Shown here piece after piece: positions 10,514 through 63,587 of a stretch of DNA of 64,000 nucleotides. The stretch is from assembly GCA_001004105.1 (NCBI GenBank), contig LCQK01000003.1:46805-110804 (forward strand), written 5' to 3'. How positions within the stretch are numbered: position 1 is the first letter of the stretch; every line of letters begins with the position of its first letter. This DNA is from Candidatus Jorgensenbacteria bacterium GW2011_GWB1_50_10. Its GTDB lineage: Bacteria; Patescibacteriota; Minisyncoccia; UBA6257; GWB1-50-10. Below the pieces are notes generated by a model. That model was not told where the DNA came from and ran no database searches. It saw only the letters and a list, made by a program, of their open reading frames with translations. The position numbers and the translations under genes were made by a program.

Positions 10514-11411
10514 CATGAGAAGTTTACTGGAGATAATCCGGGAAACGGAAAAAGATAAGGTTGCAATAGGCCATTTCAATATTTCCAACCTGGAGCAGTT
10601 AAAGGCGATATCGCATGTCGCGGCGAAACTCAACGTACCGGTCATTATCGGCACATCGGAGGGCGAACGGGACTATATTGGTGTTCATCACGCCGTTGAT
10701 CTCGTCAAAAGTTACAACAAGGAGCACGCAAAAGGAAATTATCGGCTGTTTTTGAACGCCGACCACACCCATACTTTAGAGAACGCGAGGAAAGCGGCTG
10801 AAGTCGGTTATGACGCGATATTATTTGACGGCGGCAAACTGCCCCTTGAAGAAAATATCAGGGCTACGAAAGAAGTCGTAGAAATGGTGAGAAAAATCAA
10901 CAAAAACATCTTAGTTGAAGGTGAGCTGGGCTATATCGGTTCGTCTTCGGAAGTAAGGAAGGAAATTCCGGAAGGGGCGGCGATTAATCCCGGGGATTTG
11001 ACCAGACCGGAGGAAGCAGCGAGGTTCGTTGAAGAAACCGGCGTGGATATGCTTGCGCCGGCGGTGGGGAACATTCACGGCATGTTCGCGAACGCTCCGG
11101 AGCCGCGGCTTGATATAGAACGCATCCGGGAAATCAAGAAAGCGGTTGAAAACCTGCCTGCCGGCAGGCAGGTCCCGCTTGTTTTGCACGGCGCCTCCGG
11201 CAACACCGATGAAGATTTAAGTGTGGCAATCGATGCTGGAATTTCCATAATCCACATTTCCACCGAGCTTCGCGTTGCTTGGCGCAAGGGTTTGGAAGAA
11301 GCTTTGAAGGAGAATCCTGACGAAGTCGCGCCCTACAAGCTGATGCCCGAGGATTTGGCAGAAATGGAGAAAGTGGTGGAGAGAAAATTACGCCTCTTCA
11401 ATAAACTGTAA
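10503..11411 (+). CDS. fba: fructose-bisphosphate aldolase, class II
   Basis: GHFNISN, DHTH and PLVLHGASG motifs. The gene contains an in-frame copy of the 20-bp palindrome (ENLPAGRQVPLVLHG). Confidence 0.9.
   Translation: MKFNMRSLLEIIRETEKDKVAIGHFNISNLEQLKAISHVAAKLNVPVIIGTSEGERDYIGVHHAVDLVKSYNKEHAKGNYRLFLNADHTHTLENARKAAEVGYDAILFDGGKLPLEENIRATKEVVEMVRKINKNILVEGELGYIGSSSEVRKEIPEGAAINPGDLTRPEEAARFVEETGVDMLAPAVGNIHGMFANAPEPRLDIERIREIKKAVENLPAGRQVPLVLHGASGNTDEDLSVAIDAGISIIHISTELRVAWRKGLEEALKENPDEVAPYKLMPEDLAEMEKVVERKLRLFNKL
11153..11172. repeat. 20-bp perfect palindrome CCTGCCTGCCGGCAGGCAGG, copy 1 (inside fba, read as LPAGRQ)
   Basis: Exact 20-mer that equals its own reverse complement. One flanking base on each side (A/T) extends it to 22 bp. 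Confidence 0.95.
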
Positions 11412-11437
11412 GAAGCAAAAGATTAGAAATACGCTTA

Positions 11438-11453
11438 CTATGACATGTCATAG
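11438..11453. repeat. 16-bp perfect palindrome CTATGACATGTCATAG (left copy; 19-bp identity ACTATGACATGTCATAGCG)
   Basis: The identical 19-mer recurs at 11877-11895. The two copies bracket the TrpR-like gene. Confidence 0.9.
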
Positions 11454-11457
11454 CGCG

Positions 11458-11856
11458 TCAATAATGGTGCATGTAGACTTTTCCGTATTTAGTGCGGCGG
11501 TAGTATCTATAGGGTTTCTTTTTAGAAGGGTGACTGCTGTTGTATACTTTCTTTTTCCGCCCCGTTTTGCCTCGTTCCCGGTAGCTCCGATAACCACTCC
11601 CTTCCAGCGCTTTTTTGATACTGCTTACGGTCTGCGGCGAGAGATGGAGTTCCTCGACAATCTGCACGAATTTTTTCCCTGAATTCATGCGGTCTGCTAC
11701 CGCGGCGCGCATAACAAGATTATGACGTTCGTTGGAGGTGGTAAATAGTTCCAAGAGTTCTCTGGATTCTGATATCTTCTTCCAGCACGCTCTTTCCCAT
11801 TCCTTACGCGAAGAGTACTGGTTGGTTGGCGGCAACGATAATAAATTCCTGGTCAT
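11458..11856 (-). CDS. TrpR/YerC/YecD-like HTH protein with basic C-terminal tail
   Basis: The segment LFTTSNERHNLVMRAAVADRMNSGKKFVQIVEELHLSPQTVSSIKKALE resembles the Trp-repressor-like family. The C-terminus is lysine/arginine/tyrosine-rich. Confidence 0.6.
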   Translation of the reverse strand: MTRNLLSLPPTNQYSSRKEWERACWKKISESRELLELFTTSNERHNLVMRAAVADRMNSGKKFVQIVEELHLSPQTVSSIKKALEGSGYRSYRERGKTGRKKKVYNSSHPSKKKPYRYYRRTKYGKVYMHHY

Positions 11857-11877
11857 AAGGTAAGTTTAACATATCAC

Positions 11878-11893
11878 TATGACATGTCATAGC
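11878..11893. repeat. 16-bp perfect palindrome CTATGACATGTCATAG (right copy)
   Basis: Lies 22 bp upstream of the TrpR-like start codon and 52 bp upstream of the DGR target promoter -35 box. Confidence 0.9.
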
Positions 11894-11944
11894 GTTTTTA
11901 CTGGGTAGTCAGTTGTTTTGTTGCTCTATTCTCGCATATAAAAT

Positions 11945-11973
11945 TGACAAGCTTGTATAAATAGGGTATACTT
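11945..11973 (+). promoter_or_regulatory. sigma-70-type promoter of DGR target gene 1
   Basis: TTGACA (11945-11950), a 17-bp spacer, then TATACT (11968-11973). This is about 80 nt upstream of the ATG at 12054. Confidence 0.6.
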
Positions 11974-12053
11974 TAGGGCAGTACAATAATGGTGAGTCTG
12001 CGGGTCTGGTAAATGCCGGACTGGGGGACGAACCACAAAAAGAGAGGTACAAG

Positions 12054-12749
12054 ATGGCGAAAAAGACGGATGAACTGGTGCAGTTTGCGGGCCACTTCCA
12101 GTCGCTCGCGACTGCGGTTTCCCGCAACCTCGAAGAGCGCGGCGTAAACGTTGTTGAGGCAATCGCGGAGGCCGCAAAGCCGCAAGGCGCTCGGGCGGTC
12201 GCGAAGATCGTAGACGCGCTCGCCGAACTCGTTGAAAACGGCAAGCGGGTCGTCGGCGCTCTCAATCTCATCGTGGCCGACATCGCCGTGAAGACCGAAC
12301 TCTTCACAAAAAATTCGTTCTTCGGCGAGGGGAGCCCAGTAAAACTCTACATCTGGGATAACTTCCGGAACTGGGTACTCACGGCTATCCTTGAGAATAT
12401 ACCTGCGTTCCAGGGTATGCTCGTGAAGCACCAACTCACGAAGGGGATGTATGACTCGGAGATTCTCTCCGGACTCGGGCATCCCACGCCGTTCTCACCA
12501 ACCGAGTTCGCGGCTGTCATTCGCGACCTCATCTCCAAGCAATCGAGAGGCGAGGAGGGCCTTCTCCTCACGAACGGCTACGCCAACATCTTCTATGTAC
12601 AGTTGCCTGCCGGCGCAGGCGGGGAAGATGCACGCGTGGTCGCGGTGCGCGTGACCTGGAACGCCGGGGACGACGACTGGCACCTGGACGCCTACGGCTT
12701 GGACGACGACGGGTGGGGTGACGGTGTCTGCGTGTTCTCTCGCAGCTGA
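12054..12749 (+). CDS. DGR target (variable) protein 1, 231 aa, unassigned family
   Basis: GC-rich ORF whose last 37 codons are the VR. It has no signal peptide or TM segment, and an SD-like AGAGAGG lies upstream of the ATG. A paralog lies at 48342..48932. Confidence 0.85.
   Translation: MAKKTDELVQFAGHFQSLATAVSRNLEERGVNVVEAIAEAAKPQGARAVAKIVDALAELVENGKRVVGALNLIVADIAVKTELFTKNSFFGEGSPVKLYIWDNFRNWVLTAILENIPAFQGMLVKHQLTKGMYDSEILSGLGHPTPFSPTEFAAVIRDLISKQSRGEEGLLLTNGYANIFYVQLPAGAGGEDARVVAVRVTWNAGDDDWHLDAYGLDDDGWGDGVCVFSRS
12602..12623. repeat. decayed copy of the 20-bp palindrome (17/20 with a 2-nt insertion) inside target 1, read as LPAGAGG
   Basis: GTTGCCTGCCGGCGCAGGCGGG lies 9 bp upstream of the VR. 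The paralog has a 6-codon shorter segment at this point (PEDGP versus LPAGAGGEDAR). Confidence 0.6.
12632..12743 (+). repeat. DGR variable repeat VR1
   Basis: 112 bp with 99/112 identity to the TR. All 13 differences lie at TR adenines. Confidence 0.9.
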
Positions 12750-12782
12750 TCTCGGATTTTCGGTCTCTTGGCAATAGTAGTG

Positions 12783-12823
12783 CGCCCCGTTCGAGTTCTT
12801 CGGAACTTGGACGGGGCGTTTTT
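12783..12823 (+). terminator. hairpin with UUCG loop plus T5 downstream of VR1 (intrinsic terminator and/or DGR target-recognition hairpin)
   Basis: 16-bp stem (12783-12798 pairs with 12803-12818, two G-U pairs), loop TTCG, then TTTTT. It starts 40 nt after the end of the VR. Confidence 0.7.
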
Positions 12824-12831
12824 GTTATAAT
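12823..12831 (+). promoter_or_regulatory. extended -10 box TGTTATAAT, candidate promoter of the TR-containing RNA
   Basis: A perfect TGnTATAAT sits directly after the terminator and about 170 nt upstream of the TR. I saw no convincing -35 box. Confidence 0.45.
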
Positions 12832-12998
12832 AAAAATGAAATTTTTTGACATCACTGCGGTCAAGGCTTCAGTGGGAAGATTTCAAAAAACAGAAAGGTC
12901 AGCTGGTGTAGGGCGCTAACGGGTGCGAAAGACCCGGCATTAGATGCAACGCTTAGAGGAATCAAAGCGCAGTGGCAAGGGCGGCGCTTTACACGATA

Positions 12999-13110
12999 AC
13001 GCGTGGTCGCGGTGAACGTGAACTGGAACGCCGAGAACGACGACTGGAACCTGAACGCCAACGGCTTGGACGACGACAGGTGGAATGACGGTAACTGCGT
13101 GTTCTCTCGC
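12999..13110 (+). repeat. DGR template repeat (TR)
   Basis: Non-coding and rich in AAC codons in the VR frame (encodes ...VNVNWNAENDDWNLNANGLDDDRWNDGNCVFSR). It is the adenine-bearing partner of VR1. Confidence 0.9.
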
Positions 13111-13125
13111 CGCTTACCTTTTATA

Positions 13126-13470
13126 TCAGTTCTTTGGGAGCTGTTTTAGCCAACCGCCCAGCATTTTTCCAACTTCGTCAACTTTTCCAGAAAGCGCGGC
13201 GTATTTTTTCGTGTCCAGAGATTTGATTTGCCAGGCAATTTGGAGGAAAAATTTTAGTGAGTCAAGTTTAAAAGAGGAATTCCTGATTTTTGCAAACCGT
13301 TCGGCTGGCGTGAGAGGGGCGGCTGAGAAAATTTCTTCGATAATATCCAAGAAAAGCAAATCTACTTTTACGCCGAGAGTATAGCGCGAGGTTTTGGGAA
13401 AATGAGGCGCGAATTCTTGCCAAAGCGTGTAGGCCGCGATTAGTTTCTGAATAATTGGCAGTTCATTCCG
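13126..13470 (-). CDS. avd: Avd-like accessory variability determinant (four-helix-bundle / 23S-IVS protein family); start codon unresolved
   Basis: The reading frame encodes NELPIIQKLIAAYTLWQEFAPHFPKTSRYTLGVKVDLLFLDIIEEIF...KYAALSGKVDEVGKMLGGWLKQ, a typical Avd pattern. There is no in-frame ATG, GTG or TTG upstream of 13359. An ATG at 13519 is out of frame by one base across a G9 tract. Confidence 0.7.
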   Translation of the reverse strand, partial: RNELPIIQKLIAAYTLWQEFAPHFPKTSRYTLGVKVDLLFLDIIEEIFSAAPLTPAERFAKIRNSSFKLDSLKFFLQIAWQIKSLDTKKYAALSGKVDEVGKMLGGWLKQLPKN

Positions 13471-13472
13471 TC

Positions 13473-13481
13473 GGGGGGGGG
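13473..13481. repeat. homopolymeric G9 (C9 on the avd strand) tract
   Basis: Nine consecutive G, 18-26 nt upstream of the RT ATG and inside the 5' region of avd. Loss of one base would fuse the ATG at 13519 to the avd frame. Confidence 0.9.
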
Positions 13482-13498
13482 TTAGAGGACGGGAATTT

Positions 13499-14482
13499 AT
13501 GAAAATTCAATTGAGCCATAAATTCGAAGATATTATTTCACTGGAAAATCTTTTGGAAGCATGGCGAGAATTTTTGCGCGGCAAGAGAAATAAAAGAGAC
13601 GTTCAGGAATTCTCATCGCGTTTAATGGATAACATTCTATTACTTCACAGCGAACTTCGCAATAAAACCTACAAGCACGGGAAGTACGAAGCCTTTAACA
13701 TCTCCGACCCCAAACCGAGAAACATCCACAAAGCCGCCGTCCGCGACCGCCTACTTCATTACGCTATTTACAGGGTTTTATATCCGTTTTTTGATAAGGT
13801 ATTCATCGCCGATTCTTTTTCCTGCCGTTTGGGAAAAGGGACGCACAGAGCCATCAACCGCTTTAGAACTTTTGCTTATAAAGTGAGTAAAAATAATACC
13901 AAAACCTGCTGGGTTTTAAAGTTGGATATTAGGAAATTCTTCGCGAGTATTGACCATGAAATTTTGATAAAAATTCTTGAGGAATACATACCCGACCAAG
14001 ACATTATCTGGTTGCTGAAGAAAGTGATAGAAAGTTTTTATTCGACCGAACCCGGCAAGGGCCTGCCTTTAGGCAATTTAACCTCCCAGCTTTTAGTAAA
14101 TGTTTACATGAACAAGTTTGACCAATTTGTGAAACACAAGTTCAAGGCCAAGTATTACGTGAGATACGCCGATGATTTTGTGATTGTGTCGAAAAACGGA
14201 ATATGGCTTGAAAGTTTAATTCCGAGAATCAGCGAATTTCTAAACAGAGAATTGAAGTTAAAACTTCACGACGATAAGATATTCATTAAAACTTTAGCTT
14301 CGGGAGTAGATTTCCTTGGCTGGGTTCACTTTCCGGATTACCGAGTTCTGCGAACCACGACCAAAAGAAGAATGTTTAAAAGAATCAAAGAACATCCCGC
14401 GCCGGAAACAATAAATTCTTATTTGGGATTATTAAGGCACGGGAACGCTTATAAATTAAAAAGAAAAATTATTGCTGAATAA
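13499..14482 (+). CDS. DGR-type reverse transcriptase
   Basis: 327 aa. The N-terminus reads [20 protein letters not shown]. Motif 4 [20 protein letters not shown] carries the SQ typical of DGR RTs, and the catalytic motif is [11 protein letters not shown]. There is no maturase or endonuclease extension, and the gene is visibly AT-rich. Confidence 0.9.
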
Positions 14483-14498
14483 TTTTTTTTGTGTTTTA

Positions 14499-15242: not shown

Positions 15243-15248
15243 AAAATC

Positions 15249-15268
15249 CCTGCCTGCCGGCAGGCAGG
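15249..15268. repeat. 20-bp palindrome, copy 2 (junction between prfA stop and the displaced prfA 3' remnant)
   Basis: Exact CCTGCCTGCCGGCAGGCAGG, 6 nt after the prfA stop codon. Confidence 0.95.
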
Positions 15269-15379
15269 CGCACCTATAATTTTCCGCAGGACAGGATAAC
15301 CGACCACCGTCAGGGCAAAAAGGTTTCAAATATTCTGAAAGTTCTCGACGGCGATTTGGACAAACTAACCGGCCGTTAA
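15269..15379 (+). pseudogene. displaced original 3' end of prfA (36 codons plus stop, out of frame with prfA)
   Basis: Encodes [36 protein letters not shown]. It shares the 17-mer TATAATTTTCCGCAGGA with 15123-15139 and is GC-rich like the prfA core. Confidence 0.75.
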
Positions 15380-16870
15380 AATTTCTATATCCTTTTGGAA
15401 TTGCTGGGCTTTCACGACCACCGGTTCGCCGTAAGCCCAGCGGTAGTAATACCACCGGCCACCGGCGTAGTATCTTGCCGCGGCGCAGCGTTCGGCAAGG
15501 ACTTGGGCATCGGCGATGTTTCTGTTTTCGCTCACGTAATTCCGGCAAGCGCTGGAATTCAGGGCGTCTTTGAGATACAAGGAAGTCGCAACGAAAGCGT
15601 CGGCGTTTGACCAGGGATTGGAAGGAGTTTGGCCGGTGATTTTCCCAATATAATCCTTGCTTTGGTTATACTCCCAGGAACTGCCGTTTTTCTCCCAACC
15701 GCCGTAGATGGCCCAGGTTGAGGGAATGAATTGGGCCGGGCCCATGGCGCCGCCGTAGGCGCCGTCTCTGTTGGCACAGGAAACCTTCGCCACGGTTGAA
15801 TTCGGGTCAATGCCGAGCTTGGAAAGAATGGCGAGGAAAATCGGAACGTCGCGGGTGGGGTGCATGGCGCCCTGGTAGCTGCAGCGGCCGACGTTTTTCC
15901 CCAGAAGAGATTCTTGCTGAAGAATGGCGAGAAGAAAAGCGGCCCGGACCCCGGTTGCGCCTTCGGCAAGGCGGGCGTATTTATAGGCCTCTTCAAAAGT
16001 GAGTTCGCCGCCTCCCAAAAGACGGAAAATTCTGCTTCTTATTTGAGCGGCAGTGGCTTGGGTTTCTTTCAGGATTTTTTGGTATTCGGATTCTTTGCCT
16101 TTGGTTACGGTCAGAAGCTGATTTTTTTCCGCTTGGGTCGTCGCGACGCTCTTTTTTTGCGATTCCTGATAATTCTTGAGATTTTCCACGTCGGATTTTT
16201 CCGCGGCGAGCTCCTGTTTTTGCTCAAGCAATTCCACCCGAAGGGCGACAACTTCGTTTAAGGCCGTCCGGATGTTGGACTGAACCAGGGTTATGTTGTT
16301 GACGTCACCGAAGAAATCCGAAAGATTGGCATTGGCCAGCAACACCTCGATCAAGCTTTGGGCGTCGGCTTCATAGAGGTCGCGGACGCCTCTCGCAAGG
16401 GCCGTTTTATGGCCGTCAATTCTGTTTTCGGTAACGTTTATGTTCTTTTGAGTGCTCGTTATTTCGTCGTCCAATTTCTGGAGATTCAGGTTGACCGCTT
16501 TAATTTGGAGGTTCAACTGGCTGATTTTGGCGTTCAGGGATTTTATTTCGTTAGTGAGGGTTTTGCCCTGTTTTTGATATTCGGCAACCGTACTTTGATG
16601 TTCAAGGATTTGGCGCTCCAATTCGGCAAGTTCGTTTTCAAGTTTCTCCCGTTCTTCCTGGCTGGTCGCGCCGTTTTCCGTGCCCGTCATCTCGGCTGCC
16701 TGGGTCGGAGTGTTCAGTTTGGTTCCGAGAAGAAGCCCCGAAAAAGCGAGGAGAACCAAAACTCCTCCTACGAATTTGATTGATTTGGTAAGAGGGATCC
16801 GGATAGCGGTCGAATAGGAGAGATTGAGACGTCTTTTACGGCTGGCCTTAATATCGTAGATTTTGCGCAT
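15365..16870 (-). CDS. membrane-anchored coiled-coil protein with C-terminal lytic-transglycosylase-like domain
   Basis: N-terminal TM segment and a long heptad-like region ([16 protein letters not shown]...). The C-terminal part has [12 protein letters not shown] and [13 protein letters not shown], which are SLT/MltB-like motifs. Confidence 0.7.
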
Positions 16871-16979: not shown

Positions 16980-17669
16980 TTATTTTTTCTTCTCTTCTTC
17001 CTTGGGCGGTGTTTCTTTTTTCTCCGGCTCCGCTGCCTGCCTGCCGGTAGGCATGGCTTTCGCTTCGGTTTCGGCCGGAGCGGCCGGTGTTTCGGCTATC
17101 GGAGGCGGCGCAACAACTTCCTCCTTCACTTTTTCGGTTACGGTCGCAATCACGGTTTCCTCCGGCGCGAGAATTTTTACTTCGGAAGGCGCGCGCAGGT
17201 CGCTAACGTGGATGCTGTCGCCCATTTTCTCCAGCTTGCCCAAATCAACCTGAAAGGAGTGGGGGATTTTGTCGGGTAGGGATTTGACTTCAATTTCGTG
17301 CAGCACCCGGACGATCACCAAACCGGCTTTTTCCGCCGGAGCGGTGCCTGTGAATTCCACCGGCACTTTTGTTTCAATCGCCTCATCCATTTTAATTTGA
17401 TGGAAATTCACCGAAAGCGTTTTTCTGGTCAGGGGATGTTCCTGAACCTCGGAAATTAAGATTGGAATTTTTCCGCCCTTCTCGTTTATCAAATAAACGA
17501 CGGTGTGGCTGCCGGCTTTGCGGTAGACTTTAACGAAATCGTTTTCCGAAACGGCAAGGTGCTGGTTTAGAACGCCGCTCCCGAAAAGTTCGGCCGGAAC
17601 CAAACCCGCCCTCCGGAGGGATTTCACTTTTTTCCCCAAAATTTCCCTTGTTTTGACTGCGAGTTCCAT
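16980..17669 (-). CDS. rplY: 50S ribosomal protein L25/Ctc with low-complexity C-terminal tail
   Basis: GKKVKSLRRAGLVPAELFG N-terminus and the two-domain Ctc form. The Glu/Lys/Pro-rich tail contains a decayed palindrome copy. Confidence 0.85.
   Translation of the reverse strand: MELAVKTREILGKKVKSLRRAGLVPAELFGSGVLNQHLAVSENDFVKVYRKAGSHTVVYLINEKGGKIPILISEVQEHPLTRKTLSVNFHQIKMDEAIETKVPVEFTGTAPAEKAGLVIVRVLHEIEVKSLPDKIPHSFQVDLGKLEKMGDSIHVSDLRAPSEVKILAPEETVIATVTEKVKEEVVAPPPIAETPAAPAETEAKAMPTGRQAAEPEKKETPPKEEEKKK
17036..17055. repeat. decayed copy (18/20) of the 20-bp palindrome inside the rplY tail (MPTGRQA)
   Basis: CCTGCCTGCCGGTAGGCATG, with two substitutions relative to the consensus. Confidence 0.7.
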
Positions 17670-17912: not shown

Positions 17913-17932
17913 CCTGCCTGCCGGCAGGCAGG
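17913..17932. repeat. 20-bp palindrome, copy 3 (12 nt upstream of rpmE start codon)
   Basis: Exact 20-mer. On the rpmE strand its 3' end together with the next base reads AGGGAG, 9 nt before the ATG. Confidence 0.95.
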
Positions 17933-18165: not shown

Positions 18166-19651
<1,486 letters not shown>

Positions 19652-29727: not shown

Positions 29728-32076
29728 ATGTTTTATTTCATTTTAATAGCCGTTTGCGCCGCTCTTTTAATTTGGGGCGGCTGGTTTCTAAGAAAGCGTT
29801 TAAAATTACGCCATCACCTTGATGTTTTGGGGATGAAGCTGTATCTTGTGCGTCTCCCGAAGAGCGGAAAAGAAGGCAAGGACTTGAAACAGGAAATAAA
29901 TTTGTCCGAGCAGCTTTTTACGGCCCTCGCGAGTTTCGGTAAGCCATTTGTTTTTGAAATCGCCGTGCCGTACGTGGGCGAAGAGATTCATTTTTTTGTC
30001 GGCGTTCACCGCTCTTTCAGCGAGGCGTTAGTGCGCCAAATTCAAGCTATTTGGCCCGACGCCGATGTCCGCCCCACCGACGATTACAATATTTTCAATT
30101 ACTCGGGCCGGACCTTGGGCGCGAGCGTGGTTTTGAGCGAGAGATTTGTTTTGCCGGTCCGGACTTATGTCGAAGTCGGCGCTGACACGTTCCTGCCCTT
30201 TTTGGGCGCTTTCTCCAAAATCAGCGAGCTCGGCGAGGGCGGCGCCATTCAGTTCGTGATTCGGCGGGCCGAAAGAAGCCGTTATAAAAAAGAAATAAAT
30301 TCCGCTCTGAAGTTTTTGAAGAAAGGCGGCAGTTTGAGTGAAATTCTCAGTCACCCCCTTTCGCTTTCTTTGGAAGATGTTGGTAAAGTGCTCCACGGCG
30401 AAGAAAAATTAAAAAAAGGAAATTATATTCTCGATGAAGCGAGCATTAAAACGCTTGAAATCAAGCTCGCCAAACAGCTTTTTGAAGTGAATGTCAGGAT
30501 TTTTGCTTCGGGACCGAGCAATTTCAAGGCAGAGGAGATTTTCGGGGGACTCGCCGCCGGCTTTTCTCAATTTGGAGCGCTCCAACGTAATTCTTTTAAA
30601 GTCGTTCAGCCGAAAAACATCAAAGGTCTGGTTCACGAGTTTTCTTTCCGCGAATTTAATTCTAACGAAGCAATGGTTCTTACAAGCGAAGAATTGGCAA
30701 GTATTTTTCATTTCCCGACGGCTTTTACTGAAACGCCGAAAATCAAGGAATTGAAAGCTCGGGAGGCGACGCCGCCGGCGAACCTTCCCAAAAACGGCGT
30801 GATGTTGGGCCTTGCTTCTTTTCGGGGCGGGAGCGAGGAGGTAAAAATCACCGACGACGATCGGCGGCGCCATCTTTACCTTATCGGCCAGACCGGCACC
30901 GGCAAATCCAATTTGCTTCTTAATATGGTCTCCGACGACCTGCGGAACGGGAAGGGACTCGCTGTTTTGGACCCCCACGGCGATTTGGTGGAGGAAATTT
31001 TAGGGCTTATGCCGAGCGGAAGAATGAAGGATGTCGTCGTTTTTGACCCGGGCGACATTGAGCGGCCTCTGGGTTTAAACATGATTGAATACAATTTCAG
31101 CCGGCCGGAGGAGAAGACGTTTATCGTGAATGAAATGCAGAATATTTTCAACAAGCTTTTTACGGCTGAAACAATGGGACCGATGTTCGAGCAGTATATG
31201 CGCAACGCCCTGTTGCTTTTGATGGAGGATATGCAGAGCGACCCGGCGACCTTAATGGAAATTTCACGGGTTTTCACCGACTCCCTTTTTCGGAAAACAA
31301 AACTCACTCGGACCAAAAATCCGGCGGTCTATGATTTTTGGGAAAAGGAAGCAGTTAAAGCCGGCGGCGAGGCGGCACTCGCCAATATGACTCCCTACAT
31401 CACTTCCAAGTTCAATAATTTTACGGCGAACGATTTTATGCGCCCCATCATCGGCCAGGTTAAATCGGCTTTTAACTTCAGAGAATTGATGGACGACGGC
31501 AAGATCTTGCTCGTCAATTTGTCCAAAGGCAGAATCGGCGACATCAACGCCAATCTCTTGGGTATGATTATTACCGGCAAGATTTTGATGGCCGCGCTCT
31601 CAAGGGTGGACGTCCCCGAAGACAAAAGAAAAGATTTTTATCTCTACATCGACGAGTTCCAGAATTTCACGACCGATTCCATTGCCGTGATTTTGTCGGA
31701 AGCGCGGAAATACCGGCTGAACCTCGTGATTGCCCACCAGTTTATCGGCCAGCTTACCGAGAAAATAAGGGATGCGGTTTTTGGCAACGTCGGGTCGCTC
31801 GTTGCTTTCCGGGTCGGGGCGCAGGATGCCGAATTTCTAACGAAGCAGTTTGCGCCCGTCTTCAGCGAGCAGGACCTTTTGAACATTGATAATTTCAACG
31901 CCTACGTTAAACTTCTTATAAATGGGGAGACCTCAAAACCCTTTAATATCAAAACCGTGCCGGCGCCGAAGGGGGAAAGAAACCTAGCAGAGCGCATTAA
32001 AGAAAATTCCAGAAATTTTTACGGTCGGGGGCGCGCCGAGGTGGAAGAAGAAATATACAAGCGATTGAGAACTTAA
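29728..32076 (+). CDS. TraD/VirD4-like (T4SS coupling protein-like) P-loop ATPase fused to an N-terminal TM plus uncharacterised domain
   Basis: Walker A GQTGTGKSNLL and Walker B LYIDEFQNF, plus an AHQFIGQL motif. N-terminal residues 1 to about 330 are homologous to the separate ORF 60165..61556. Confidence 0.75.
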   Translation: MFYFILIAVCAALLIWGGWFLRKRLKLRHHLDVLGMKLYLVRLPKSGKEGKDLKQEINLSEQLFTALASFGKPFVFEIAVPYVGEEIHFFVGVHRSFSEALVRQIQAIWPDADVRPTDDYNIFNYSGRTLGASVVLSERFVLPVRTYVEVGADTFLPFLGAFSKISELGEGGAIQFVIRRAERSRYKKEINSALKFLKKGGSLSEILSHPLSLSLEDVGKVLHGEEKLKKGNYILDEASIKTLEIKLAKQLFEVNVRIFASGPSNFKAEEIFGGLAAGFSQFGALQRNSFKVVQPKNIKGLVHEFSFREFNSNEAMVLTSEELASIFHFPTAFTETPKIKELKAREATPPANLPKNGVMLGLASFRGGSEEVKITDDDRRRHLYLIGQTGTGKSNLLLNMVSDDLRNGKGLAVLDPHGDLVEEILGLMPSGRMKDVVVFDPGDIERPLGLNMIEYNFSRPEEKTFIVNEMQNIFNKLFTAETMGPMFEQYMRNALLLLMEDMQSDPATLMEISRVFTDSLFRKTKLTRTKNPAVYDFWEKEAVKAGGEAALANMTPYITSKFNNFTANDFMRPIIGQVKSAFNFRELMDDGKILLVNLSKGRIGDINANLLGMIITGKILMAALSRVDVPEDKRKDFYLYIDEFQNFTTDSIAVILSEARKYRLNLVIAHQFIGQLTEKIRDAVFGNVGSLVAFRVGAQDAEFLTKQFAPVFSEQDLLNIDNFNAYVKLLINGETSKPFNIKTVPAPKGERNLAERIKENSRNFYGRGRAEVEEEIYKRLRT

Positions 32077-45674: not shown

Positions 45675-45676
45675 AG

Positions 45677-48341: not shown

Positions 48342-48932
48342 ATGATGAAGGGAACGAACGGACTCGAGTGGCTTGCGGACCGCTGGCAGTCGGTTGCGAC
48401 TGCAGTTCCCCGCCGCTTTGAGAATCGTGGAGTTAGCGGCGGGGAGGTAATTGCCGCCGTAACCAAGCCCCAGACCAGGAGTATTGTGGTCCAGACCGAG
48501 CCCTTTGCTAAGGACTCGTTCTTTGGGGAGAGCGGTCCCGCGGAGCTCTGCATTTGGGACAACTTCCGAACCCAGGTGCTATCAGCAGTTTCCGAGACCG
48601 TGCCCGCGTTTCGAGGCACGCTCACGAGAACTGAGCTTGAGGAGCACATGGGGGACTCCGAGATTTTCGCCAACGGGACATCCCGGCCGCTCCTCTCGCC
48701 GGACGATTTTGTTGCGGTCGTCCGTGACCTCATCTCCCGCCAGCCGAGAGGTGAGAGGGGAATCCTTCTCACAAACGGGGATGCCAACATCTTCCATGTG
48801 CAGCCGGAGGATGGACCTGTGGTTGCGGTGCGTGGGCGCTGGCGCGTTGGTCTCGGCGGTTGGAGCCTGCGCGCGTATGGCCGGGACGACGTCAGATGGC
48901 TCAAAGGCCACTGCGTGTTCTCCCGCGGCTGA
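48342..48932 (+). CDS. DGR target-family paralog 2 (196 aa) with diverged VR-like C-terminus
   Basis: The start at ATG 48342 follows AAGGAGAGG, and [22 protein letters not shown] aligns with the MAKKTDELVQFAGHFQSLATAV start of target 1. Shared blocks include IWDNFR, PAF.G, VIRDLIS.Q.RGE.G.LLTNG.ANIF.VQ and the C-terminal CVFSR. Confidence 0.8.
48819..48926 (+). repeat. VR-like repeat (VR2), diverged from the TR at both adenine and non-adenine positions
   Basis: Aligns codon-for-codon with TR 13003-13110. By hand count there are about 19 mismatches at TR adenines and about 17 elsewhere. The conserved ends are GTGGT.GCGGTG and CTGCGTGTTCTC.CGC. Confidence 0.6.
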
Positions 48933-49062: not shown

Positions 49063-51588
49063 ATGCAGGACAAAATTGTTATAAAAGGAGCAAGAGAGCA
49101 TAATCTCAAGAACGTCAATCTGGAAATTCCTCGCGACAAAATGGTGGTTTTTACCGGGCTTTCCGGGTCGGGGAAATCCTCGCTGGCTTTTGACACGATT
49201 TTTGCCGAGGGCCAGCGCCGCTACATTGAATCGCTCTCGGCCTATGCCCGGCAGTTTTTAGGTCGTTTGGACAAGCCTGATGTTGACGAAATTGACGGAT
49301 TATCGCCCGCGATTTCCATTGACCAGAAAAGCCATTCTCACAACCCGCGCTCCACGGTCGCGACCGTCACGGAAATTTACGATTATCTCCGCGTTCTTTT
49401 CGCCCGCGTGGGCATTCCCCATTGTCCGAAGTGCGGCCGGGAAATCAAAAAAATGACGAACGAGGAAATTGTGGATACCGTGCTCCGGATTTATCAAAAC
49501 AAAAAATCCGACAAAAACCTCGTGGTTTTGGCGCCGGCTGTCCGCGGCCGGAAAGGGGAATATTATCAGCTCCTTTACGATTTCTTAAACGCCGGTTTTC
49601 GAGAAGCACGCATTGACGGTAAGATTCATAACTTGCGGGAAAGAATTGAGCTTAGCCGTTACAAACAGCACACAATAGAGCTCGTGGTGGATAGATTGCC
49701 TGACGGTTTGGATATGCGCGAGAAGGACAATCGCTTGCGTTTGGCCGAAGCGGTGGAGTCGGCCTTGAAATACGGCAACGATGTTGTAACCGTGATTGCC
49801 GATGAAGAAGAAACTTCGCTCTCCGCCAAATTCACTTGTCCCAACGACAGTTACTCTTTTCCGGAAATAGAGCCGCGACTTTTTTCCTTCAACAGCCCCT
49901 ACGGCGCCTGCGAGGTCTGCCACGGTTTAGGGACGGAGAGCATTTGGTCGGAAAAACCCTGTCCCAAATGTTTAGGCAAGCGTCTGCGAGACGAAGCGTT
50001 AAGTGTTCTCATTGCTGATAAAAGCATTGCCTCGGTTGTGGCAAATTCTATAAGCAACGCCCGTAAATTCTGCGATGAAGTGGAAGGAAAAATTGACGAG
50101 AATTTCAAGGAGGTGGTTTCAGCGCCACTGCGCGAAATCAAAAACCGGCTGAAATTCATGATTGATGTCGGTTTGGAATATCTCACGCTTGAACGGCGAG
50201 CCGGGACGCTCTCGGGCGGCGAAGCTCAGCGTATCCGCCTCGCCTCCCAAATCGGTTCGCGTCTCACCGGCACGCTCTACATATTGGACGAACCGACTAT
50301 CGGTCTTCACCAGCGCGACAACGCGAAACTCATCGCTACTCTCCAAGATTTGCGGGATTTAGGGAACACCGTCCTCGTTGTGGAGCACGACGAGGAAACC
50401 ATCCGCCAGTCGGATTATCTCGTGGACATCGGGCCGGGCGCCGGCGTCCACGGCGGTAAAATCGTGGCCCAAGGGTCGATTCCCGAAATTCTCTCCGACA
50501 AAAAATCCAAGTCGCTCACCATCGATTACCTGAACGGCAGGGAATTCATTCCCGTGCCGGAGAAAAGACGGCCGGTGACGCGGAAGGGCGACTTTTTGGT
50601 GATAAAGGGCGCAAGCGCGAATAATCTGAAAGACATTGACGTGCAAATTCCCTTGCACCGGTTTGTGGCCGTAACCGGTGTTTCCGGCTCAGGAAAAAGT
50701 TCCTTGGTTTATGATGTCATCTACAAAGCGCTCGCCAATGCCTGGAACGGCGCAAATTATAAAGTCGGCGCGCATAAAGGCATGACCGGTTTGGAAAATT
50801 TGAACCGTGTGATTAATATTGACCAGTCGCCGATAGGTCGTACCCCGCGTTCCAATCCAGCCACTTATGTCGGCGCTTGGACTTTTATCCGCGAGCTTTT
50901 TGCCGCAACCGAAGACGCCCGCGTCCGCGGCTACAAGCCGGGACGCTTCAGTTTCAATGTCCGCGGCGGGCGGTGCGAAAACTGTGAAGGCCACGGCACG
51001 ATTGCGATTGAAATGCACTTTTTGCCGACCGTTTACGTCACTTGCGACGTCTGCAAAGGCAAGCGTTTTGATCGCGAGACTCTGGAAGTTGAATATAAAC
51101 ATAAGAACATTTATGACATCTTAAAGATGACCGTGGAGGAAACAGTGGAGTTTTTCCGCGATATTCCCTGGCTTTACGACCGGCTGAAAATTCTGGAAGA
51201 AGTGGGTTTGGGCTATTTAACGCTGGGGCAGTCGGCGACGACTTTGTCTGGCGGCGAGGCCCAGCGGATAAAACTCACGGCCGAACTCGGCAAGCGCGAC
51301 ACTAGGAAAACGATTTATCTTCTTGATGAACCGACGACCGGTCTTCATTTTGCCGACGTTCAGAATCTTTTGAAAGTTTTGGACCGGTTGGTCGCGCGCG
51401 GCAATACTGTTGTTGTGATTGAACATAACTTGGATGTCATCAAGACCGCTGACTGGGTGATTGACTTGGGGCCCGAAGGCGGCGAAAAGGGCGGGGAGAT
51501 GATTGTCGCCGCGCCACCCGAAGGCGTCATGAAAAAAGCCGGTAGTTTTACGGGCGCTTACCTCAAGAAAGCCCTCGCTAAAAAATGA
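49063..51588 (+). CDS. uvrA: excinuclease ABC subunit A
   Basis: The start was set at [18 protein letters not shown]. Two ABC modules ([12 protein letters not shown] and [11 protein letters not shown]), Zn fingers and LSGGE signatures are present. The ORF-track start at 48988 was rejected. Confidence 0.95.
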
Positions 51589-52814
51589 AAAAACTTCACG
51601 CCAAAATGCCAGATTCGCCGGGCGTCTACTTAATGAAAAACGCTCGCGGCCGGATTCTTTATATCGGCAAGGCGGCAAATTTAAAAAGGCGGGTTTCCAG
51701 TTATTTTTTGCGTCCCGCACGCCTGCCTGCCGGCAGGCAGGATTCGCGAATTGAAAAAATGGTGAGCGAGGTGCGCAAGATTGATTACAAAAAAACCGAC
51801 ACTGCTTTGGAAGCACTAATTTTGGAGGCGACTCTTATTAAAAAACACGAACCGCCCTATAACGTCAGAGAAAAAGACGACAAGAGCTTCCTTTACGTGG
51901 AAATAACGAAAGATAAATTCCCGCGAGTGCTTTTGGTGCGCGGCCGTGCCTACCGGCAGGCAGGCAAAAGCCGGGCGGGAGGGGATAGATTTGGACCGTT
52001 TACTTCTGCTTCAAGTGCGCGGGAGGCGCTCCGCATCATCCGCAAAATTTTTCCGTTCAGCGTCCATCCGGCGGATAAAATCGGCAAATTCAAGAAACCC
52101 TGTTTTGACTACGAAATTGGTCTTTGTCCGGGTACTTGCGCCGGTCTTATAGATAAGACCGATTATCTGAAGAACGTCAGAAACATCAAACTGCTTTTCC
52201 AAGGCAAGAAAGCGGCCATATTGAGGACGCTAAAACGGGAAATGGAAGCGGCGAGCAAGCGGCTGGACTTCGAAAAAGCCGCCAAATTACGGGGCCGGAT
52301 TTTCGCGCTGGAGCACGTGCAGGACGTGGCGCTCATCAAGAGCGAGGAAGACAGCGGTACGGAAAACAAGGCAAGAATTGAAGGATACGACATTTCCGAT
52401 ATTTCCGGGACATCGGCCGTGGGAGCGATGGTTGTTTTTCGCGGCGGCAGACCGGCACCGAATGAATACCGGAAGTTCAAAATCGGCACGGTTTTTAAAC
52501 CGAACGATACTGCAATGTTGAAAGAAGTGATTGGCCGGCGTTTGAACCATCGGGAATGGCCGCTGCCCGATTTATTCCTGATTGACGGCGGCAAGCCGCA
52601 GGTGAACGCCGCAAAAAAGATTCTCAGAGATTCCGGTTTCGTGATTCCGGTCGTGGGCATCGCCAAGGGCGCGAAACGAAAGAAAAACGAATTCATTGGT
52701 TCTATACCCTACAACCTATCACCTATAACCTTGATTAAGGTTCGCAACGAAGCCCACCGTTTCGCCCAAAGTTACCACAAAAGGTTAAGGAAAATAATCT
52801 CACTAGGTTTGTAA
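51585..52814 (+). CDS. uvrC: excinuclease ABC subunit C (short form, 409 aa)
   Basis: GIY-YIG N-terminus (GVYLMKNARGRILYIGKAANLKRRVSSYF), a UVR domain (DFEKAAKLRGRIFALE) and an RNase H-like endonuclease region. It carries one perfect and one decayed palindrome copy in-frame. I did not see a C-terminal (HhH)2 region. Confidence 0.88.
   Translation: MKKLHAKMPDSPGVYLMKNARGRILYIGKAANLKRRVSSYFLRPARLPAGRQDSRIEKMVSEVRKIDYKKTDTALEALILEATLIKKHEPPYNVREKDDKSFLYVEITKDKFPRVLLVRGRAYRQAGKSRAGGDRFGPFTSASSAREALRIIRKIFPFSVHPADKIGKFKKPCFDYEIGLCPGTCAGLIDKTDYLKNVRNIKLLFQGKKAAILRTLKREMEAASKRLDFEKAAKLRGRIFALEHVQDVALIKSEEDSGTENKARIEGYDISDISGTSAVGAMVVFRGGRPAPNEYRKFKIGTVFKPNDTAMLKEVIGRRLNHREWPLPDLFLIDGGKPQVNAAKKILRDSGFVIPVVGIAKGAKRKKNEFIGSIPYNLSPITLIKVRNEAHRFAQSYHKRLRKIISLGL
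51722..51741. repeat. 20-bp palindrome, copy 4 (inside uvrC, RLPAGRQD)
   Basis: Exact 20-mer within a loop of the GIY-YIG domain. Confidence 0.95.
51945..51964. repeat. decayed palindrome copy (18/20) inside uvrC (RAYRQAGK)
   Basis: CGTGCCTACCGGCAGGCAGG. Confidence 0.7.
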
Positions 52815-56895: not shown

Positions 56896-56909
56896 ACTGG
56901 TTTTCAATC

Positions 56910-59074: not shown

Positions 59075-59138
59075 GTGGGTGGGGATTGACGCCCTTTCCC
59101 AAAAGTGCTAAAGTTTAGATTAATAATTTGTTACCAAT

Positions 59139-60158: not shown

Positions 60159-60164
60159 AAGCGC

Positions 60165-61556: not shown

Positions 61557-62081
61557 ATGAATTTACTGCAGTCAATCATCAATGCCGTTTCCGATTTTCC
61601 CTGGGTGCGCACTTTTTGGAGCGTCCGTTTCATTTTCATTGTTTTGAACATAATTCTCGCCGTTCTTTTCGTTTACGTTTTCATCCGGGCCCTGAAATAC
61701 CGGCCGAAGTTTTACTTCGATTCGGAAGCACTCGCCAAAAGAAAGAAAATCATAAGAGAAGGCGCGAAGTGGGGAGATAAGTGGAAATATCTTTTGGAAA
61801 AAGCCCGAGCGCATCCGCCGCAGTCGCTCTTTATGGGCGTGGTTGAAGCCGACGGTTTGGTGGATAGCGTTTTGAAAAAAATAGGCGTGCCTGGGGAACA
61901 CATGGCCGACCGCCTGGAGCGGCTTGCCGGCCGGAACTTGAAGACCATTGAGCGCCTCTGGAGAGCGCATAAAGTCCGCAATGACCTGGCTCACACGCCG
62001 GGCTTCACGCTTGATTCACACGACGCTGAGGAGATTTTGGGGGATTACGAAGCATTCCTAAAAGAAATAGGAGCGATATAG
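61557..62081 (+). CDS. single-TM hypothetical protein with an R-x4-H (HEPN-like) motif
   Basis: The start abuts the previous stop. One hydrophobic helix is followed by ...LWRAHKVRNDLAHTPGFTL.... Confidence 0.5.
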   Translation: MNLLQSIINAVSDFPWVRTFWSVRFIFIVLNIILAVLFVYVFIRALKYRPKFYFDSEALAKRKKIIREGAKWGDKWKYLLEKARAHPPQSLFMGVVEADGLVDSVLKKIGVPGEHMADRLERLAGRNLKTIERLWRAHKVRNDLAHTPGFTLDSHDAEEILGDYEAFLKEIGAI

Positions 62082-62105
62082 TTTGAAAATTGAAAATTTT
62101 TTGAC

Positions 62106-63587
62106 ATGCCTAAGCCTGGAAAAATACAAATAATCCGTTATGCGCCGCCGCCGCCGGACCTGCCGGTCTACGGCCGCATTGACCCGAAAGACGTTTCTTT
62201 CATCGGCCGGACCAATTACGTGGCGGCCCTGGAAGAGAAAAAATTCATCTTCGGTATCAAGCGCCACGACCGGAGGCGGCACCTTTACGTCATCGGCAAA
62301 AGCGGTGTCGGCAAGTCCAAGGCGCTGGAGCTTTTAATCCGGCAGGATATTGCTTTCGGGCACGGCCTTTGCCTCATTGACCCGCACGGCGACGTGATTG
62401 AGGCGACTTTGGATTTTGTGCCGCAAAGCCGCGTGGAGGACGTGGTGATTATTGACCCGTCGGATTCGGAGCATCCAGTTTCTTTTAATCCTCTTCAGAA
62501 TGTTGACCCGTTTTTCAAACATCAGCTGACTCAAGGGCTGATTGAGGTGATGGAGAAGCAGTTCGGCGCAAACTGGACGCCGCGCCTGGAGCATGTTTTC
62601 CGTTTCACTTGCCTTGCTCTTTTGGATTATCCTCACGGCACGATGCGGGGGATGATTTCCATGCTCACCGACCGCAATTACCGGCAAAAAGTCATTGAAT
62701 ACATCGGCGACGATATGGTCAAGCGTTTCTGGGCCATTGAATTCGCCGACTGGTCGGAGAAATTCGACACCGACGCTATCATCCCGCTCGTGAACAAGCT
62801 CGGCCAGTTCCTTTCCGACCCGATGCTCCGGAATATCTTCGGCCAGAAAGAAAATAAGATTGATTTGGAAGAACTGATGAACAAAAAGAAAATTATTTTG
62901 ATTAACCTTTCTAAGGGCCGGCTCGGCGAGGAAAATTCCAGTTTTTTCGGCTCCATGTTCATCACCAAAATCAAACAGGCGGGCATGGCCCGGGCTAAGA
63001 TACCCGAGTCGGCGCGGCACGATTTTTATCTTTATGTTGACGAGTTTCAGAACGTTGTGACTGAAACTTTCGAAAATTTGCTGACCGAAGCGAGAAAATA
63101 CGGTCTTTGCATGACTATTGCCCATCAGTACCTAGGTCAGCTTCTGCCGAAAGTGAAAGCCGCAGTTTTGGGCAATGTCGGCAGCCTGATTGTTTTCCGG
63201 GTTGGCGGTGAGGACGCGGAGACGCTGGAGCCAGAAATGGCGCCACTTTTCAAAAACAAAGACATGATTAACCTCGGCATGCAGGAGTTTTACATCAAAA
63301 TGATAATCGACGGCGAGTCCTACGACCCGTTCTCGGCGGAAACCTTGAAAATATTGCCCTCACCCCACGGTTCGCTCAAAAAGGAAATCATCGAGGCCTC
63401 GCGCCGGAAATATTCCATTCCCGCCGATGCCGCCAAAAAACTCATTGAAGAAGAAGAGTCAACGATTATCAGGAGCGCCCAGGAAAAAGCCATTATTACC
63501 GGCGGCAAGGATAAAAAAGACCTGCCTGCCGGCAGGCAGGAAAGTGAAGAAAGCGACGCCGCCAAAATGGAAGAGCCACTCATATAG
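62106..63587 (+). CDS. TraD/VirD4-like P-loop ATPase (stand-alone version of the C-terminal half of ORF 29728..32076)
   Basis: RRHLYVIGKSGVGKSKALE (Walker A), LYVDEFQNV (Walker B), AHQYLGQL and GNVGSLIVFRVGGEDAE. The C-terminal tail carries palindrome copy 5. Confidence 0.78.
   Translation: MPKPGKIQIIRYAPPPPDLPVYGRIDPKDVSFIGRTNYVAALEEKKFIFGIKRHDRRRHLYVIGKSGVGKSKALELLIRQDIAFGHGLCLIDPHGDVIEATLDFVPQSRVEDVVIIDPSDSEHPVSFNPLQNVDPFFKHQLTQGLIEVMEKQFGANWTPRLEHVFRFTCLALLDYPHGTMRGMISMLTDRNYRQKVIEYIGDDMVKRFWAIEFADWSEKFDTDAIIPLVNKLGQFLSDPMLRNIFGQKENKIDLEELMNKKKIILINLSKGRLGEENSSFFGSMFITKIKQAGMARAKIPESARHDFYLYVDEFQNVVTETFENLLTEARKYGLCMTIAHQYLGQLLPKVKAAVLGNVGSLIVFRVGGEDAETLEPEMAPLFKNKDMINLGMQEFYIKMIIDGESYDPFSAETLKILPSPHGSLKKEIIEASRRKYSIPADAAKKLIEEEESTIIRSAQEKAIITGGKDKKDLPAGRQESEESDAAKMEEPLI
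63521..63540. repeat. 20-bp palindrome, copy 5 (inside ATPase tail, DLPAGRQE)
   Basis: Exact 20-mer. Confidence 0.95.

Follow-up and report, generated by a model that had tools for sequence, protein, structure and literature searches.

How does a short palindrome come to stand inside essential genes, repeatedly and without breaking the reading frame? The question is raised by a 64,000-nt stretch of Candidatus Jorgensenbacteria bacterium GW2011_GWB1_50_10 (contig LCQK01000003.1; the whole stretch is called the window here), through which a perfect 20-nt palindrome, CCTGCCTGCCGGCAGGCAGG (PAL), is dispersed. We conclude that PAL is probably a selfish, non-autonomous, ultra-small mobile DNA module of 20 nt, which often takes the 22-nt form A-PAL-T. 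In-frame insertion is proven by filled and empty sites in fba, at two places in uvrC and in the target gene of a diversity-generating retroelement (DGR). Landing sites are preferentially places prone to be single-stranded (the loops of hairpins and tRNAs, and the C^CGG centre of existing PAL copies), and also A|T steps and short tandem-repeat tracts. Comparison loci, taken from genomes or viral contigs, carry L-numbers below and ortholog proteins carry P-numbers.

A sequence-only reading of the window had reported five exact copies, far beyond chance. All five were found (starting at 11153, 15249, 17913, 51722 and 63521), and the expectation from 100 dinucleotide-preserving shuffles was 0.00 matches. 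Two further copies, at 17036 and 51945, carry two mismatches. As a single strand the 20-mer forms a hairpin (-8.0 kcal/mol) whose stem has 8 bp and whose loop is CCGG. Its reading frames, the same on either strand, are PACRQAG, LPAGRQ and CLPAGR, so that the palindrome has no stop codon in any frame, as had been noted; LPAGRQ is the only frame free of cysteine. The translations of fba, uvrC and the ATPase agree with the earlier statement that the three intragenic perfect copies are read as LPAGRQ, and the L25 copy shares this palindrome frame with fba, uvrC site 1 and the ATPase tail. The copies and the features attached to them are as follows.

11152 to 11172, no strand: exact PAL plus an extra A (21 nt), in-frame in fba (10503-11411), reading NLPAGRQV, with an I-to-V change at the junction.
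12602 to 12623, plus strand: degenerate PAL-like insert TTGCCTGCCGG-CG-CAGGCGGG in DGR target 1, encoding LPAGAGG, with an internal 2-nt insertion.
15249 to 15268, no strand: exact PAL starting 7 nt past the prfA stop, immediately 5' of a relic prfA 3' end.
15269 to 15367, plus strand: relic, diverged prfA C-terminus, in frame with the CLPAGR reading of the preceding PAL.
17036 to 17055, minus strand: exact copy of the variant PAL-b (see below), in-frame in the L25 tail (MPTGRQA); the extended consensus GCC...GGC is also present there.
17913 to 17932, no strand: exact PAL, 12 nt upstream of the rpmE ATG (~17900, minus strand), in the divergent spacer that separates rpmE from a 16S rRNA gene starting at 18166.
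51717 to 51741, no strand: exact PAL plus junction bases at uvrC (51585-52814) site 1, reading RLPAGRQD, net +21 nt.
51945 to 51965, plus strand: PAL-b-like CGTGCCTACCGGCAGGCAGG plus C (21 nt) at uvrC site 2, reading AYRQAG, in a frame that differs from the other coding copies.
63521 to 63540, no strand: exact PAL, read as DLPAGRQE in the frame of a TraG/VirD4-like ATPase (62106-63587), in whose C-terminal tail it lies.

Filled and empty alleles could be compared directly in several genes. Among 120 fba orthologs most read AV-K-IPLVLHG, and the window and five others read (K/E/Q)(N/D)LPAGR(Q/R)(V/A)PLVLHG. The empty fba allele is GTA AAA|ATT CCT (L125); the window, L123 and L124 have the filled form AAA A[A+PAL]TT, and L163 has CAA G[A+PAL]TT. 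In an alignment of 60 uvrC orthologs nearly all read RP-H-DSRIEK at site 1 and LLVR-GKSRA at site 2, positions at which the window has RP-ARLPAGRQ-DSRIEK and LLVRG-RAYRQAG-KSRA. Site 1 DNA is CCT CAC GAA TCG when empty (L122) and CCC GCA CGC CTG CCT GCC GGC AGG CAG GAT TCG when filled, a net gain of 21 nt. At site 2 the empty allele is GGC|AAA (L122) and the insert, CGTGCCTACCGGCAGGCAGGC, is 21 nt long; L162 has exact PAL-b at this position, from which the window copy differs by one mismatch. The LPAGAG of the DGR target (12054-12749) is missing from its paralog at 48342-48926 (net +6 aa, +18 nt), and the description of the 12602 copy as degenerate and absent from the paralog was borne out. 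The net gain in genes is 21 nt, and 18 nt in the DGR target. Had PAL only overlain residues that orthologs encode anyway, no insertion would be needed; the empty fba and uvrC alleles lack those residues. The tails of L25 and of the ATPase are too variable for empty sites to be defined.

The extra base that brings the coding inserts to 21 nt has no fixed place. It is a 5' A in fba, a loop T in the nested unit of L192, arm A's in L021 and a G lying 4 nt upstream at uvrC site 1, which argues for a 20-nt unit with a compensating +1, or for error-prone copying, and against a fixed 21-mer. A one-nucleotide target duplication was considered as the source of the 21st base; it suits uvrC site 2 (C..C) and fails for fba (A..T) and for uvrC site 1.

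Outside genes the insertion can be seen without coding constraint. The viral contig L147 carries a family of REP-like (repetitive extragenic palindromic) hairpins, GGGTGCCCCATCCTTGCGGTTTTTG|CAAGGGTGGGTC, of which four copies are empty and one holds PAL at the 3' edge of its loop. In viral contig L151 (2239-2330) a tRNA-Met(CAT) has PAL between G46 and U47 of the canonical AGGUC variable loop and is still called by ARAGORN, at 92 nt. Both comparisons give exactly +20 nt and no target duplication. In L128 (8616), a contig related to L151, the same tRNA insertion is followed by a partial T-arm deletion and then by the dispersed repeat TTCGACAGGCTCACCAC. PAL also occurs with tRNA 5' fragments (L015:4041, L037:2127, L085:67, L158:515 and L030:3628), at the 3' end of the D-loop or just inside the 3' strand of the D-stem in the first four and in the 5' strand of the D-arm in L030. 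We considered the D-loop copies as interruptions of functional tRNAs and rejected this, in-silico excision having yielded no tRNA in L015, L037, L085, L099 or L158, which are tRNA 5' fragments or pseudo-tRNAs. Excision in L030 gave only an 86-nt call running into a neighbouring intact tRNA-Val. Among the PAL-bearing tRNA loci tested, the tRNA-Met of L151 is the only intact one. The L030 fragment lies ~50 nt upstream of the intact tRNA-Val and has the same sequence; PAL repeatedly marks the junctions of such partial gene copies.

PAL also enters PAL. In four nested cases (L018, L042, L021 and L192) the outer copy is always cut 9|11 or 11|9, that is at C^CGG, a coincidence with a chance probability of ~(2/19)^3, about 0.001. 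The L192 fba gene is 92% identical to that of the window and carries its second unit inside the same fba PAL. In L021 (2790-2850) a dTDP-glucose 4,6-dehydratase-like open reading frame (ORF) contains a PAL nested in an older PAL, in-frame as DLPA-LPAGRQ-AVRQG over 42 nt; two additional A's in the right arm of the outer copy bring the frame back.

The bases next to PAL are biased. In 169 flank pairs A..T occurs 41 times (~11 expected), C..C or G..G 40 times and T..A twice; the excess of A..T indicates that the unit is often the 22-nt palindrome A-PAL-T. The most frequent flank trinucleotides are GCG, CGA and AGA, and neither GTAG nor CGTC is found in the flanks. The earlier impression that flanks are often A-rich has to be narrowed to an enrichment of A at -1 and T at +1. 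Short tandem repeats, mostly of period 7, surround 9.3% of PAL copies compared with 0.8% of control positions. A longer parent element bounded by the 10-nt halves was sought and rejected: in 0.9 Mb of loci the lone half-sites were nearly all decayed full copies. The 22-nt form, ACCTGCC...GGCAGGT (e.g. window 11152-11173, L002, L005, L010 and L040), contains two inward-facing ACCTGC sites, which we take to be BspMI/BfuAI type IIS sites cutting at N4/N8. Inward N4 cuts would fall at 9|10 and 11|12, matching the points of nested insertion and a HpaII/MspI-type C^CGG cut, and this may be coincidence.

The repeat is not private to this genome. A scan for the exact 20-mer in one genome per species gave at least 120 genome loci. 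The matches listed come from Patescibacteria, Bacteroidota, Omnitrophota, Planctomycetota, Thermodesulfovibrionales, Bdellovibrionales, Elusimicrobia, Verrucomicrobia and Ignavibacteria, and from metagenome-assembled genomes labelled Gamma- and Deltaproteobacteria; no cyanobacterial genome is among them. Seven Bacteroidota among the matches listed are cultured isolates, e.g. Winogradskyella echinorum KCTC 22026, Flagellimonas yonaguniensis 334s03, Longitalea luteola, Aquiflexum lacus and Aestuariivivens sediminis, and the assemblies carrying PAL include short-read, long-read and single-cell ones. IMG/VR contributed 35 further stretches with the exact 20-mer, whereas a control 20-mer with two other mismatches had zero viral matches. 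The flanks of genome and viral copies are unrelated to each other. In the comparison loci 175 PAL copies are exact and 42 have 1-3 mismatches; most are single copies and not doublets.

Genes are largely avoided. At loci of up to 52% G+C, ORFs of 150 aa or more contain 25% of the copies, compared with 77% of random control positions. Of the 27 coding copies 14 use the LPAGRQ frame, a share that becomes 11 of 15 once only ORFs of 300 aa or more are counted. The survivors that reside in genes sit in permissive loops or tails, mostly in this frame. Judged by eye, host genes elsewhere probably include those for GatB, FtsK, dTDP-glucose dehydratase (RfbB) and a secreted Bacteroidota protein.

The shared positions in fba and uvrC bear on age and recurrence. 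One and the same nucleotide position of fba is filled in at least five lineages that stand apart on a neighbour-joining tree, and the nearest neighbour of each lacks PAL. Across four filled fba lineages the insert shows 0/21 differences, whereas the flanking 45 nt average 16.7 and 11.5 differences (26-37%). Site 1 of uvrC is pristine in the window and in L121, where 27 nt are identical although the proteins share only 61% identity; in L165 it has decayed to GCG GGC AGG CAT, and protein alignment suggests that other site 1 inserts, in P0003, P0029 and P0044, may be decayed remnants. At uvrC site 2 the insert differs at 1/21 positions and its flanks at 15/57. Copy load is uneven: the 64-kb window has seven PAL-like copies, and 10 of 15 related loci from the candidate phyla radiation (CPR; ~190 kb in total) have zero. 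The pattern looks like lineage-specific bursts of a young element that re-hits the few positions able to tolerate a 7-residue insert and to satisfy the A|T preference.

PAL is accompanied by a discrete variant. Mismatches in near-copies cluster at positions 2/19 and 8/13 (51 of 74) because PAL-b, CATGCCTACCGGCAGGCAGG, recurs. It is exact in the L25 gene of the window (minus strand) and in seven viral-contig stretches, compared with 0 for a control two-mismatch variant; a partial form with only G8>A, CCTGCCTACCGGCAGGCAGG, is present in L086 and L087. The copies at 17036 and 51945, which the sequence-only reading had taken to be simply decayed, are thus an exact PAL-b and a copy one mismatch from it. 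PAL-b is asymmetric and folds weakly (-3.6 kcal/mol vs -8.0 for PAL); its spread indicates that both arms are copied faithfully and that a strong hairpin is not needed. Viral contig L160 (IMGVR_UViG_3300025106_000007; 30.8 kb) has at least 18 PAL or PAL-b copies. At 3914-4142 at least 11 perfect tandem 21-nt units GCCATGCCTACCGGCAGGCAG (PAL-b + 1) run off the contig end and lie, on the minus strand, in frame with a Rep3_C fragment (PF21205, E = 1.4e-8). From its sequence the array could be either iteron-like or an in-frame (LPAGRHG)n expansion inside the rep gene. The change G8>A (equivalent to C13>T), at the outer pair of the GCCGGC core that closes the hairpin, is by far the commonest in near-copies (window 17036 and 51945, L038:3289, L142:1676, L164:3395 and L189:2362, the last with the symmetric double change). 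It may result from cytosine methylation followed by deamination, or from descent from PAL-b.

Other small modules occupy similar places. An unrelated family of mini-inserts with the core CCTTCGRCAAGCTCAGGG reads LRQAQGK, FDKLRA or STSSGQA depending on frame. It is found at L126:10640-10680 and 16040-16080 and in L016, L032, L076, L087, L176-L178, L187 and L190, and is not present in the window; the core occurs six times in the comparison loci vs ~0.05 expected. As L(R/Q)Q(A/V)QGK(P), a mini-insert lies in the same fba loop as PAL in at least eight other orthologs, and in a nearby uvrC loop (P0008 and P0051). Another perfect palindrome, TCCGCCGCGGCGGA, sits in the loop of the L147 REP-like hairpin (1146-1193, 2990-3037, 8899-8946 and 10502-10549), and the perfect palindrome TCCGCCAGCTGGCGGA adjoins a PAL (L016:152-181). 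The behaviour of these two palindromes suggests a wider set of loop-inserting modules. It is a doubtful extension that PAL, PAL-b, the LRQAQGK/FDKLRA element and TCCGCCGCGGCGGA-type palindromes form a pan-bacterial class of ultra-small mobile DNA. Such a class would consist of 20-22-nt units that insert without target duplication into single-stranded loops, by a mechanism used by no known transposon family (e.g. through a hairpin-oligonucleotide intermediate or a widely shared or phage-borne enzyme), would cross phyla unchanged and would routinely remodel loops of essential proteins and tRNAs.

Matched by description, the closest kind of known element appears to be the cyanobacterial small dispersed repeats (SDRs). 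Elhai et al. reportedly described, in 2008, SDR1-8 of Nostoc and its relatives as 21-27 nt long, nearly exact, dispersed and, judged by filled and empty sites, mobile; they are also said to be tied to tandem heptamer tracts and to nesting. We know of no enzyme for SDRs. PAL resembles them in its 20-22-nt unit, nearly exact and dispersed, in its filled and empty sites and in its association with period-7 repeats and nesting. It differs in being a perfect palindrome of another sequence, identical across phyla and in-frame in essential genes and a tRNA. SDR5 inserts between bases 3 and 4 of the HIP1 (highly iterated palindrome 1) palindrome (PMC4390886).

The sequence-only reading had proposed a miniature element of the REP or Rickettsia palindromic element (RPE) type. 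A very short palindrome that inserts in-frame stands, whereas membership of either family does not, on grounds of tag, size and range. REPs are imperfect palindromes that need a GTAG or CGTC tag for cleavage by RAYT (REP-associated tyrosine transposase) and occasionally lie inside genes, notably repair genes (PMC3733652). With REPs and REPINs (REP doublets forming hairpins) PAL shares a short GC-rich hairpin, a mostly extragenic location (see the coding fractions above), a presumed non-autonomous nature and lineage-specific copy number. Its ends, however, are CCTG/CAGG, its stem is perfect and it has no GTAG/CGTC tag; REPs are species- or genus-specific and often form inverted doublets flanking RAYT, whereas PAL is cross-phylum and mostly single. 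RPEs are confined to Rickettsia, measure ~100-150 bp with a coding capacity of 30-50 aa, and bear a CGTC tag (Ogata et al. 2000, summarised in PMC3733652 and PMC3184786). They share with PAL the in-frame palindromic insertion into surface-exposed or permissive segments of an ORF that stays functional, but PAL is ~5-7 times shorter at 20-22 nt, adds 6-7 aa and crosses phyla. Miniature inverted-repeat transposable elements have the terminal inverted repeats of a parent insertion sequence, produce a target-site duplication and usually exceed 50 bp; PAL shows no duplication at three clean filled/empty pairs and no longer element in 0.9 Mb.

Yeast mitochondrial GC clusters (e.g. GC42) are ~30-50 nt long, with a putative AG target duplication (PMC4478555). 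Like PAL they are GC-rich palindromic mini-elements of an AT-richer genome whose mobiliser is not known, with merging or nesting of units, stems conserved above synonymous sites and apparent exchange between species. They differ in being organellar and longer, and PAL shows no counterpart of the putative duplication. DNA uptake sequences (DUS), uptake signal sequences (USS) and HIP1 are likewise short, exact, over-represented motifs that are tolerated in genes in certain frames and conserved amid diverging flanks. These motifs originate by point mutation, are spread evenly at about one per kb and are lineage-specific. PAL, in contrast, is a block insertion, depleted from genes and shared by unrelated phyla, with none in ~190 kb of related genomes. 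Rep_3 iterons, 17-22-bp direct repeats at ~21-22-bp spacing by a rep gene, are resembled only by the PAL-b array of L160; the PAL scan found no tandem array in the window, and no rep gene was among the 30 less obvious window ORFs. The literature searched held no relevant mention of the 20-mer, its cores or its peptides (LPAGRQ, RQAQGK, FDKLR and others). A known RNA family was considered and rejected: an Rfam search (E<=1) over 10.5-18.5 kb returned 16S rRNA only.

The clean 20-nt addition, the preference for loops and palindrome centres, the existence of subfamilies and the phage copies lead us to infer copying from existing copies, with integration into single-stranded DNA through a trans-acting, structure-specific activity. 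The likeliest candidate would be a hairpin- or ssDNA (single-stranded DNA)-specific HUH/Y1 enzyme (RAYT or IS200/IS605-like) or another structure-specific nuclease-ligase at replication forks. The activity, or PAL-bearing DNA itself, would move horizontally, as PAL in phage contigs suggests, and such movement would explain the identical sequence in different phyla. Repeat occupation of the fba site could reflect a weak target preference (A|T after an A-run) together with very few permissive in-frame positions.

Several results weigh against a mobile module of this kind. All-against-all clustering of 2154 ORFs from the 120 listed loci (~4-8 kb around the copies) gave no family present in more than six loci, and the families that do recur near PAL (in up to six) are generic ABC/PAS-type proteins. 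Within the 64-kb window, 30 less obvious ORFs had no match to Y1_Tnp or any other transposase, so that the RAYT/IS200-like gene envisaged earlier was neither among them nor recurrent near the listed copies. As a perfect untagged palindrome PAL offers no asymmetric cleavage tag, and PAL-b spreads despite its poor folding; both fit poorly with RAYT/IS200 substrates. Nor does the model account for the survival of an essential gene through the lethal stage between a 20-nt insertion and its +1 compensation. Comparison at strain level showed no polymorphism: the same four copies recur in two other assemblies of the organism, at 99.95-100% identity. A gapped flank pattern for rpmE matched nothing in metagenome contigs, but it also missed the known filled allele there and so carries no weight. 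Finally, independent insertion explains poorly the complex 27-nt junction that is identical at uvrC site 1 in lineages 61% identical, and the site 2 insert is less diverged than its flanks; in these two cases maintenance at the DNA level, or filled alleles spreading laterally, may be part of the explanation.

The main mechanistic rival dispenses with a dedicated transposase. A released self-complementary oligonucleotide (from hairpin excision, a nuclease product or cDNA) would self-anneal to a blunt 20-bp linker and be ligated or copied into nicks or breaks, entering, for instance, at hairpin tips, C^CGG nicks or stalled forks, with error-prone synthesis giving the 21-nt variants. We regard this as unlikely. 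Insertions of exactly 20 nt without target duplication, an extra nucleotide placed differently in each coding case and A..T flanks, as expected from fill-in of an A-PAL self-duplex, all suit it. So do the copies found where foreign or duplicated fragments are joined on (the prfA relic and the tRNA 5' fragments), the failure to find a linked enzyme among the window ORFs or at the 120 listed loci, and the DGR reverse transcriptase near PAL in the window and L123. Yet it gives no reason for the spread across phyla of this sequence and a few others but of no other palindromes, nor for the faithful propagation of asymmetric PAL-b, which is incapable of a perfect self-duplex; the free intermediate was not observed and, to our knowledge, most CPR genomes lack end-joining. 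Maintenance by selection or transmission bias of a functional or driven motif, either a site for a dimeric protein (operator-, iteron- or uptake-signal-like) or an RNA hairpin, seems rather improbable. The conservation described above speaks for it: the unchanged fba insert of four lineages amid flanks diverged by 26-37%, the better conservation of the uvrC site 2 insert than of its flanks and the identical 27 nt of site 1 in distant lineages. The L160 array is iteron-like in its spacing of 21 nt (two helical turns) over at least 11 units and in abutting a Rep3_C initiator fragment, and the spread of PAL-b despite its weak hairpin suggests recognition of sequence and not structure; yeast mitochondrial GC cluster stems are also conserved below the synonymous rate (PMC4478555). 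Against maintenance, copy load is strongly lineage-specific, with most related genomes lacking any copy, and no positions are shared besides those in fba and uvrC. Copies lie in pseudo-tRNA fragments, in other repeats and in each other, PAL is depleted from genes, decayed copies exist and phyla whose DNA-uptake and replication machinery is unrelated share the sequence. Uptake sequences, moreover, arise by point mutation and not by block insertion.

The shared fba and uvrC sites could alternatively go back to one or few old insertions, the filled allele having since passed from lineage to lineage through homologous recombination, as proposed for yeast GC42; we judge this very unlikely. Identical junctions in all filled fba alleles (A+PAL) and in both pristine uvrC site 1 alleles would follow from it, the filled alleles are not monophyletic, a diverged prfA fragment with a PAL at its junction hints that foreign homologous DNA was taken up, and there is a precedent (PMC4478555). 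However, in every fba and uvrC pair synonymous differences begin 3-9 nt from the insert on both sides, so that no conversion tract is visible. RecA-type exchange requires longer identical flanks, and recombination would at most cover the shared sites and not the dispersed copies. To an adapter, linker or assembler artefact, or to ancestral residues without insertion, we give practically no credence, even though an identical short GC-rich palindrome in unrelated assemblies resembles a contaminating linker. The exclusion of an artefact rests on copies that keep the frame of essential genes thanks to a compensating +1 nt, on diverged copies and subfamilies, on cultured isolates and on assemblies from many groups, made with differing assemblers from short reads, long reads and single cells; two independent assemblies of the source organism share the copies, and orthologs without the residues exist.

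Three neighbourhoods of PAL in the window deserve description in their own right. The sequence-only reading had placed PAL at the junction of a prfA 3' duplication. PAL does lie at that junction, but the adjoining segment is not a recent duplicate: the functional, orthologous C-terminus is the upstream one, and a complete, diverged second C-terminus follows directly 3' of the PAL at 15249. The conservation pattern of this relic suggests that it came from the functional prfA of another lineage and was joined at the palindrome. The gene called simply an ATPase is more exactly one for a TraG/VirD4-like coupling protein; the window has two TraG/VirD4/TrwB-like coupling-protein ATPases (29728-32073 and 62106-63587), and only the second has PAL, in its tail. 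The DGR comprises a reverse transcriptase (13499-14482), the target at 12054-12749 and a paralogous second target 36 kb away at 48342-48926. A template-like repeat at ~13000-13110 has 73% protein identity to the target C-terminus, and bAvd and/or RVT_1 genes occupy the syntenic DGR place in the relatives L123 and L167.

If confirmed as a mobile module, PAL would be among the smallest mobile DNA units known, at 20 nt. Against known systems, the novelty lies in a palindrome of 20 nt that is perfect, the same in different phyla and in phages, and present within essential genes and a tRNA. Since PAL, unlike REPs and SDRs, is the same in distant phyla and in phages, its mover would be either very widespread or travelling along with it. 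As cultured Bacteroidota carry PAL, laboratory tests become possible of the mechanism, a question that SDRs have posed since 2008. PAL could also be used as a marker of recent insertion activity and of mis-annotation (spurious LPAGRQ, CLPAGR and PACRQAG peptides). For the genome-reduced CPR bacteria it would be a natural source of 6-7-residue loop inserts in essential proteins (fba, uvrC and L25, and probably GatB, FtsK and RfbB elsewhere) and, in a tRNA, of an extra arm, and it may bear on the frequent short inserts in CPR proteins.

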